The notes beneath the pieces are model-generated. The model saw only the letters and a program-made list of their open reading frames with translations, was not told the DNA's origin and made no database searches. Shown here piece after piece: positions 6,282 through 6,665 of a stretch of DNA of 9,852 nucleotides. A program made the position numbers and the translations under genes. The stretch is from a virus (lineage: Duplodnaviria; Heunggongvirae; Uroviricota; Caudoviricetes). How positions within the stretch are numbered: the first letter of the stretch is position 1; every line of letters starts with the position of its first letter. Location of the stretch: the IMG/VR virus record IMGVR_UViG_2778261346_000016, positions 1 to 9,852 of that record; one strand, given 5' to 3'.

Positions 6282-6665
6282 TCAGAATGGGATGGAATCG
6301 TCGTATACAGGAGTGTTCTGCTGGTTACTACTTTGCTGCTGCGGGCTGTTTCCTGAAGTTGCAAATCCAATCTTTGCATTCAGTAATTCAAGAGTGATTG
6401 ATTGACCATTTTGCCCCTGATAAACATCAACCCTGATGTTTTCTCCGGTAATTTCCACAATGCCACCCTCAACCAGAACGCTACGGTAGTAATCCGCTTG
6501 CGCTCCCGGCTTGGCAAATATAACGGCGCTGTAGTTTGTCCATTCTTTCTTTTTAGTCTGGCGGTCGTAATACTGAACGCCAGCACGGATGTTAAATCCG
6601 ATATTTTCCCCGGCCTGAAACTCTCTTGCGGGCTTGTTTAGTCTTACAGTAATCGAATGTGCCAT
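6282..6665 (-). CDS. single-stranded DNA-binding (SSB)-like protein with acidic C-terminal tail, 127 aa
   Basis: Ends with a Gln-rich linker plus YDDSIPF, matching the conserved SSB C-terminal tip (DDDIPF). OB-fold-like segments KEWTNYSAVIFAK and VEGGIVEITGENIRVDVYQGQNGQ. ATG 6665..6663 overlaps the erf stop (TAATG). Confidence 0.6.
   Translation of the reverse strand: MAHSITVRLNKPAREFQAGENIGFNIRAGVQYYDRQTKKKEWTNYSAVIFAKPGAQADYYRSVLVEGGIVEITGENIRVDVYQGQNGQSITLELLNAKIGFATSGNSPQQQSSNQQNTPVYDDSIPF

Follow-up and report, generated by a model that had tools for sequence, protein, structure and literature searches.

A putative single-stranded DNA-binding protein with a host-type C-terminal tip, encoded between erf and abc2 in a phage recombination module

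The DNA analysed here covers positions 1 to 9,852 of the virus record IMGVR_UViG_2778261346_000016 (Caudoviricetes), and this whole stretch of 9,852 nt is referred to as the window. Its minus strand carries, at 6282..6665, a short gene for a protein resembling bacterial single-stranded DNA-binding proteins (SSBs). The list of open reading frames (ORFs) contains an exact ORF there, with 127 codons plus a stop (ATG at 6665-6663, stop codon at 6284-6282), and the complete coding sequence including the stop was assigned to the HK97 gp40 or "SSB-1b" type on the basis of the ORF list, the match to PHROG 44, the identity to HK97 gp40 and the ratio of nonsynonymous to synonymous polymorphism (pN/pS). 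The full translation is MAHSITVRLNKPAREFQAGENIGFNIRAGVQYYDRQTKKKEWTNYSAVIFAKPGAQADYYRSVLVEGGIVEITGENIRVDVYQGQNGQSITLELLNAKIGFATSGNSPQQQSSNQQNTPVYDDSIPF, and its C-terminal end, SGNSPQQQSSNQQNTPVYDDSIPF, consists of a Q/S/N-rich linker followed by DDSIPF. Three parts were distinguished, all on the minus strand: a predicted OB-fold domain for binding single-stranded DNA (ssDNA) in residues 1-104 (6354..6665), a short disordered Q/S/N-rich linker in residues 105-119 (6309..6353; unconserved in both length and sequence within the family) and the C-terminal tip VYDDSIPF in residues 120-127 (6285..6308), which from its sequence, the family consensus and its pN/pS appears equivalent to the protein-docking motif of bacterial SSBs (SSB-Ct). 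The preliminary description of this feature, made from the DNA letters, was thus right that a real gene lies here, though on the minus strand, and the length of 127 aa, the Q-rich linker and the DDSIPF end that it reported are all present in the translation. The chance of a D-D-x-I-P-F C-terminus is estimated at about 3e-7 per protein from typical amino-acid frequencies.

The gene lies inside an early-left recombination (Rec) module with the order erf - SSB gene - abc2, all on the minus strand. Upstream is erf (6665..7270, minus strand), encoding a 201-aa Erf-family single-strand annealing protein (Pfam ERF, E 2e-44) with 75% identity to P22 Erf, and the third gene of the module is abc2 (5965..6258, minus strand), encoding the 97-aa anti-RecBCD protein 2 (Pfam Anti-RecBCD_p2, E 6e-64) with 94% identity to P22 Abc2. 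The position directly downstream of erf, as first described, is confirmed by the Pfam match and by a stop/start overlap TAATG at 6663-6667 (minus strand), in which base 6665 is common to the TAA stop of erf and the ATG of the SSB gene. A Shine-Dalgarno sequence AAGGAG is found at 6676..6681 (minus strand), within the 3' end of erf and 10 nt 5' of the ATG. Together with the overlap it suggests that the SSB gene is translationally coupled to erf, and the same kind of overlap was also found at homologous loci. The segment from erf to abc2 (5900-7350 of the window) is 99.9% identical to that of the Stx2c-converting phage Stx2_5044, and the SSB gene itself is 100% identical to a prophage gene in E. 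coli O145:H28 RM12581.

The 127-aa protein matched PHROG 44 (phrog_44), "single strand DNA binding protein", with an E-value of 1.3e-27. An AlphaFold2 monomer model was built from an alignment of 55 sequences, the modelled sequence lacking Met1 so that its numbering is offset by -1. The mean predicted local distance difference test score (pLDDT) was 85, and exceeded 90 at residues 1-105. The topology was that of an OB fold, strands b1-b3, one helix and then b4-b5, forming a five-stranded beta-barrel with the helix between strands 3 and 4, and the tail was disordered (residues 106-126, with pLDDT below 50 for residues 105-127). When the model was compared with the PDB by Foldseek, the top 50 hits were all SSB, mitochondrial SSB or PriB (E from 1e-4, template modelling scores 0.4-0.55), and the nearest named neighbours in a BFVD structure comparison were phage SSBs. 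The structure prediction proposed as a check therefore returned an OB fold, with high confidence, and homology to a non-SSB family, which would have spoken against the SSB-like character, was not found; SSBs are the sole detectable homologs of the protein.

Sequence profiles gave a corresponding result, with significance dependent on their breadth. A narrow profile (A1) was borderline against E. coli SSB (EcSSB), with an hhalign probability of 56% and an E-value of 0.48 against the PDB, and the link to SSBs became significant only with the broader profile A3, comprising 98 sequences and made after an exhaustive search. With A3, the hhalign probability against EcSSB was 97.4% (E 1e-11) over 84 OB-domain columns, and hmmsearch of the PDB retrieved the SSB of K. 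pneumoniae (1e-7), that of E. coli (5e-5) and yeast Rim1 (5e-5), the first two alignments including linker and tip and that of Rim1 the OB domain only. The SSB model of Pfam (PF00436) was reached unaided by 8 of the 98 family members (E<0.01). No precomputed SSB Pfam domain was present in any of the 120 database relatives listed, in which the sole Pfam entry was PF00793 in P0060, an atypical protein of 149 aa; for the window protein taken singly the NCBIfam SSB model stayed below threshold (14 bits against a cut-off of 246). In the profile alignment, from which the mapping of residues was taken rather than from structural superposition, W54, F60 and W88 of EcSSB correspond to W42, F50 and Y82, and aromatic residues occupy them in 98/98, 97/98 and 76/83 members, respectively. 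It is concluded that the protein most probably represents, within the bacterial-type SSB superfamily, a divergent branch that falls below the detection threshold of Pfam.

The likeness to E. coli SSB extends over the whole architecture: OB domain, disordered linker and acidic tip ending in IPF (YDDSIPF versus FDDDIPF). A two-residue insertion sets the proteins apart, the family having a nearly invariant and family-specific W-T-N-Y where EcSSB has W-H. E. coli SSB is 178 aa long and the window protein 127 aa, with C-terminal regions of about 65 and 24 residues. The short length compared with the host SSB, already remarked upon in the preliminary description, is accordingly due to a short C-terminal region and linker and not to a truncated fold. 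Across the family the region from the OB domain to the end is unalignable and spans 19-99 residues with a median of 50.

The family is small and discrete, comprising 210 clusters at 50% identity in an exhaustive profile search of 1.84 billion representatives; it is borne by phages or prophages and ranges from enterobacterial to marine Vibrio phages. Among 5,426 complete E. coli genomes, 579 (approximately 11%) carried the gene, Stx-converting prophages included, and in every E. coli row listed the RefSeq/PGAP label was "hypothetical protein" beside "ERF family protein". A plasmid search gave 7 records only, apparently phage-plasmids or mis-assigned chromosomes.

Selection on the three parts of the protein was assessed at 80 close viral loci (95-99% identical), which yielded 42 distinct alleles whose pairs are not independent. 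The ORF was intact and the DDSIPF end kept at all 80 loci. The overall pN/pS was 0.148, with 0.135 for the OB domain, 0.17 for the linker and the lowest value, 0.034, for the tip, so that of the three regions it is the tip that is under the strongest purifying selection. Among 120 close-to-medium relatives DDSIPF was the commonest ending, and nearly all variants conformed to [DE]-x-[IP]-P-F. In 115 diverse full-length representatives, whose linkers could not be aligned, the ending was [IVLPAT]-P-[FWY] in 63, and in a further 9 or so the motif stood one residue off the end. The consensus of the tip-bearing members, D-F-D-D-D-I-P-F, is identical to the tip of E. coli SSB, which bears out the earlier comparison of the tail with that of bacterial SSBs. 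The homolog in Edwardsiella phage GF-2 (contig L004, 3001-3399) ends in NEPPMDFDDDIPF, the last 13 residues of E. coli SSB, and P0102 of a Leminorella prophage (contig L006, 4001-4417) ends in PPMDFDDDIPF. Since the identity in GF-2 reaches well past the minimal tip, it suggests that a tail module was exchanged with a host ssb gene rather than that convergence alone was at work. In three further members, P0126, P0157 and P0161, the tip is internal and followed by a conserved extension (IPFAPIGLQ/M), so that the C-terminal Phe, normally essential as a free end, would be buried.

The genomic context of the family was surveyed in viral contigs recovered with distant seeds, the seed P0149 giving a single locus, and neighbours were labelled by Pfam and PHROG. 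Among 39 distinct ORFs immediately upstream there were 14 ERF, 6 YqaJ exonucleases, 3 Gp157/Mu-Gam-like proteins, 1 AAA_24 (Sak4-like) protein and 1 Rad52/Sak, at least 25 of 39 thus having recombination functions from at least four unrelated families; the rest were unassigned, and stop/start overlap was usual. Erf lies directly upstream in HK97, Serratia prophages, Edwardsiella GF-2 and some marine contigs. In Vibrio phage 1.236.O, RecT and then an exonuclease precede the family SSB, and at the one YqaJ locus examined by annotation (L005) RecT lies upstream of the YqaJ exonuclease. In Leminorella the gene directly upstream encodes an AAA_24/Sak4-like protein; a jackhmmer label naming it "ERF" was wrong, and the Pfam/PHROG counts were used. 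As it pairs with several unrelated annealase and exonuclease families, the protein is a recombination-module SSB and not a partner of Erf only. The proposal of a dedicated partner for Erf is consequently not supported at the level of the family, the same SSB following unrelated recombination genes and a few tail-less members occurring beside Erf too.

The C-terminal part of Erf itself was compared between loci with and without the tip. In the window Erf a C-terminal module spans approximately residues 143-201 (window 6665-6840), and a module of the form FTDAA...YxIRKxELE is common to the Erfs beside tip-bearing SSBs (L009, L112, L116, L123 and L125), being kept even where the cores are only 32% identical (L116 and L125). 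The Erfs beside tail-less SSBs, which end in QPQR or GHRR (L012, L130 and L135), have 168-172 aa, end about 35 residues short and are without the module. The module may be a partner-docking domain, and the pattern is compatible, as a lead only, with docking of a generic SSB tip, be it of host or phage origin.

The closest named relative is gp40 of HK97, with 95.3% identity over 127 aa by tblastn, the translations being compared as well, and HK97 has the same erf - gp40 - abc2 order as the window. In a survey of 325 lambdoid phages (PMC12315714, Genome Res 2025) the AlphaFold3 (AF3)-predicted structure of HK97 gp40 was found similar to bacterial SSBs, the protein was named SSB-1b within an SSB functional class, and a module type of anti-RecBCD, SSB and single-strand annealing protein ("HK75 type") was described; the SSB-1b assignment there is an AF3 prediction, and the C-terminal tail with its acidic tip is unmentioned. 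The HK97 gp40 record ends in DDSNPILI, whereas the window copy and nearly all others end in DDSIPF. This is because of an extra A in the HK97 sequence (AF069529.1, L001 2870-2890; GATTCCAATCCC) relative to window 6282-6300 and phage HF4s (GATTCCATCCC), which puts the last four codons of gene 40 out of frame. The extra A is either a 2000-era sequencing error or a real tip-less allele. In the same record, AF069529.1, the product of the erf coding sequence is likewise labelled "Gp40". In HF4s (MT833387.1, L002 1870-2265) another frameshift splits the copy into a 94-aa "ssb protein" and a 36-aa ORF, and the canonical EYDDSIPF end can be read downstream in another frame.

In P22 the genes run arf - erf - abc1 - abc2, with an overlap between abc1 and the stop of erf there too, and the preliminary description was right that abc1 is the gene after erf in P22. 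Comparison of the window protein with Abc1 and with phage SSBs had been proposed: PHROG 44 and the phage SSB structures of BFVD matched, and Abc1 did not. P22 Abc1 (94 aa) gave no BLASTP alignment with the window protein at E<=100; it falls in helix-turn-helix/transcription-regulator PHROGs (phrog_323) and is without OB-fold signal and SSB tip. An Abc1 ortholog was accordingly rejected, the two genes being non-homologous replacements in the same slot. Abc1 is regarded as an accessory recombination-module gene (PMC12315714).

The action of the window protein is best modelled on the SSB of HK620 (HkaK, "SSB-2"), which occupies the same slot in the order sak4 - ssb - abc2 and was first mis-annotated as abc1. 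This SSB depends on its last 6 residues, NDYPPF, which resemble the DDDIPF of the host, for stimulating Sak4 in annealing and recombineering as well as for loading Sak4 on SSB-coated ssDNA (Hutinet et al. 2018, PMC5928155). No sequence relationship between HkaK and the family was detected (hhalign probability 0.2%), homology was rejected, and HkaK is an analog sharing the slot and a P-F-ending tip. The partners also differ, Sak4 being RecA-like and ATP-dependent and the presumed partner in the window being Erf. Lambda encodes no SSB and uses that of its host. Red-beta uses its C-terminal domain to contact the tip of SSB. This contact would be analogous to the proposed one between the C-terminal domain of Erf and the tip, as hinted by their co-occurrence. 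Binding of SSB to lambda Beta provides a precedent for an annealase-SSB interaction in phages (PMC12315714).

The window protein probably serves the phage recombination module as a genuine ssDNA-binding protein, with its host-type tip as recruitment handle, and we place the probability of this reading at roughly 0.7. Binding of ssDNA, oligomerisation and tip-mediated loading of Erf would be expected by analogy with the HK620 SSB/Sak4 and Red-beta/host SSB pairs. Residues 1 to about 104 would make up an OB domain of the bacterial SSB type, divergent in sequence, whose conserved aromatics bind ssDNA, and the disordered Q/S/N-rich linker would present the tip YDDSIPF, which is essentially that of host SSB. 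The SSB protein and Erf would be co-translated from the PL operon. The SSB would then coat ssDNA arising in phage recombination or replication, for instance that made by Abc2-modified RecBCD, and the tip would act as a docking handle bringing the annealase (Erf, possibly via its conserved C-terminal module) onto the SSB-coated ssDNA. Because the tip matches that of the host, it might also recruit host SSB-interacting proteins.

Several observations weigh against this reading. A Pfam search with the single window protein gave nothing at E<0.1, the SSB model included, and a single-sequence PDB search with it was empty. The equivalent of EcSSB W40, Y32, is aromatic in just 51/98 members, the adjacent Y33 being so in 76/98. 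About one third of the diverse family members are without the tip, some of them still adjoining an Erf, and the tip is thus not universally required. A minority of members have no recognisable upstream recombinase. As for the Erf module, P22 Erf has a homologous C-terminal module without any phage SSB, the Erf C-terminus of GF-2 differs though its SSB neighbour bears the tip, and the link between the Erf C-terminal domain and the tip is weak because the loci are few and phylogenetically confounded.

An alternative that is compatible with a recombination-module SSB, and that we consider possible but improbable, is that the protein competes for or mimics the host SSB interactome. Displayed in many copies, on or off ssDNA, its host-identical tips would tie up or divert the host proteins that bind SSB (ExoI/SbcB, RecQ, RecJ, RecO, PriA and the chi subunit) and so protect phage recombination intermediates, an accessory function against host nucleases in keeping with the abc1 slot beside abc2. 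The nearly host-identical tip (consensus DFDDDIPF) fits such a role, as does the GF-2 homolog with its verbatim host ending, and the P22 gene in this slot is itself an accessory of the anti-RecBCD and recombination module. Competition with SbcB has moreover been proposed for another SSB-like phage protein, unrelated to this one, that carries an FDDDIPF tip (bioRxiv 10.64898/2026.04.29.721553). The OB core and the aromatics aligned with W54, F60 and W88 are nevertheless strongly conserved, which argues that DNA binding itself is selected and not tail display alone, and tail-less family members exist. In a combined form, to which we likewise give little credence, the protein would be a molecular mimic that hands off to the swappable C-terminal module of Erf on phage ssDNA and simultaneously captures or out-competes host SSB-interacting nucleases and helicases (ExoI, RecQ, RecJ, RecO and PriA). 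If that were true, it would be a functional replacement of Abc1 as the accessory partner of Abc2 when intermediates of phage recombination are protected and processed; it would also be a candidate for triggering or evading the SSB-sensing defence systems Retron-Eco8, AbpAB, DARNA, Hna and DRT10; and the co-occurrence of the Erf C-terminal domain with the tip, as well as the GF-2 tail, would reflect co-evolution and exchange of tails with host ssb. The DARNA preprint does not deal with this family.

Unlikely, too, is a general replication SSB that coats lagging-strand or rolling-circle ssDNA and whose adjacency to erf is a matter of operon convenience. Tip-bearing bacterial-type SSBs do serve replication via chi, DnaG and PriA, the SSBs of many phages are replication proteins, and those members without a recognisable recombinase neighbour would be accounted for. 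Such a function does not explain why recombination genes of several unrelated families make up at least 25 of the 39 distinct upstream neighbours, often with translational coupling, or why the lambdoid gene sits in the PL recombination module away from the O/P replication genes, and 177 of 246 lambdoid phages with a Rec module manage without a phage SSB (PMC12315714). That the ORF is functionless or decaying, a remnant merely resembling SSB, might be thought from the frameshifted copy of HF4s, the 1-nt insertion that destroys the tip in the HK97 record and several truncated or frameshifted clusters in the database. It is practically excluded by selection and prevalence: the ORF is intact at each of the 80 close viral loci, with a pN/pS of about 0.15 overall and 0.03 in the tip, and the gene recurs in E. 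coli genomes (579/5,426) and in phages from enterobacterial hosts to marine Vibrio.

What remains of the window is consistent with a PL early-left operon. Kil is encoded at 7527..7679, further upstream of erf, CIII at 7664-7903 (minus strand; phrog_550), probably with an internal Met start, and an N-like antiterminator at 8506-8778 (minus strand; phrog_271). An excisionase/AlpA-like ORF lies at the left edge (1-192, minus strand) and a predicted membrane protein at the right edge (9484-9852, minus strand; phrog_6534). The interval between kil and erf (7281-7530, minus strand) holds two overlapping 56-aa ORFs in different frames, at 7360-7530 (phrog_2123) and 7281-7451 (phrog_1723), for which the HK97 equivalent is the single 83-aa gp42.1. 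Relative to HK97 gp42.1 the window has two 1-nt deletions, 6 nt apart, where a divergent (mosaic) segment begins, and two genes, a frameshifted gene or programmed frameshifting are candidate explanations. Three further early-left ORFs on the minus strand (2991-3743, 3740-4402 and 5332-5811) look like modular paralogs, with PHROGs 368, 614, 250 and 492 in common and with common N-terminal YQxLREAAEKA or internal TPATDAFL motifs, and they resemble the mosaic "ea"-region proteins of lambdoid phages. The adjacent ORFs of 62 and 58 aa at 2457-2645 and 2642-2818 (minus strand) both start with MKNRKAK and both match phrog_1380, a small gene duplicated in tandem.

The family is already known at the level of prediction as SSB-1b, and HK620 provides an experimental precedent for how it would act. 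In the literature found there was no description of the conserved host-type tip, of the very strong purifying selection on it or of the pairing with at least four annealase/exonuclease families, nor of the hinted co-occurrence of the Erf C-terminal module with the tip. The frameshift at the tip of the HK97 reference is a further increment, as is the statistical link that profile comparison suggests between the family and canonical SSBs. The understanding of phage recombination is unchanged by these findings. A firm label as recombination-module SSB would improve prophage annotation for a gene that is common, called "hypothetical protein" and outside Pfam. By analogy with Sak4 and SSB of HK620, Erf and its cognate SSB would offer a natural pair for recombineering tests. 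Phage SSBs trigger several defence systems, and the protein adds a lambdoid candidate to those phage SSBs that such systems may sense.

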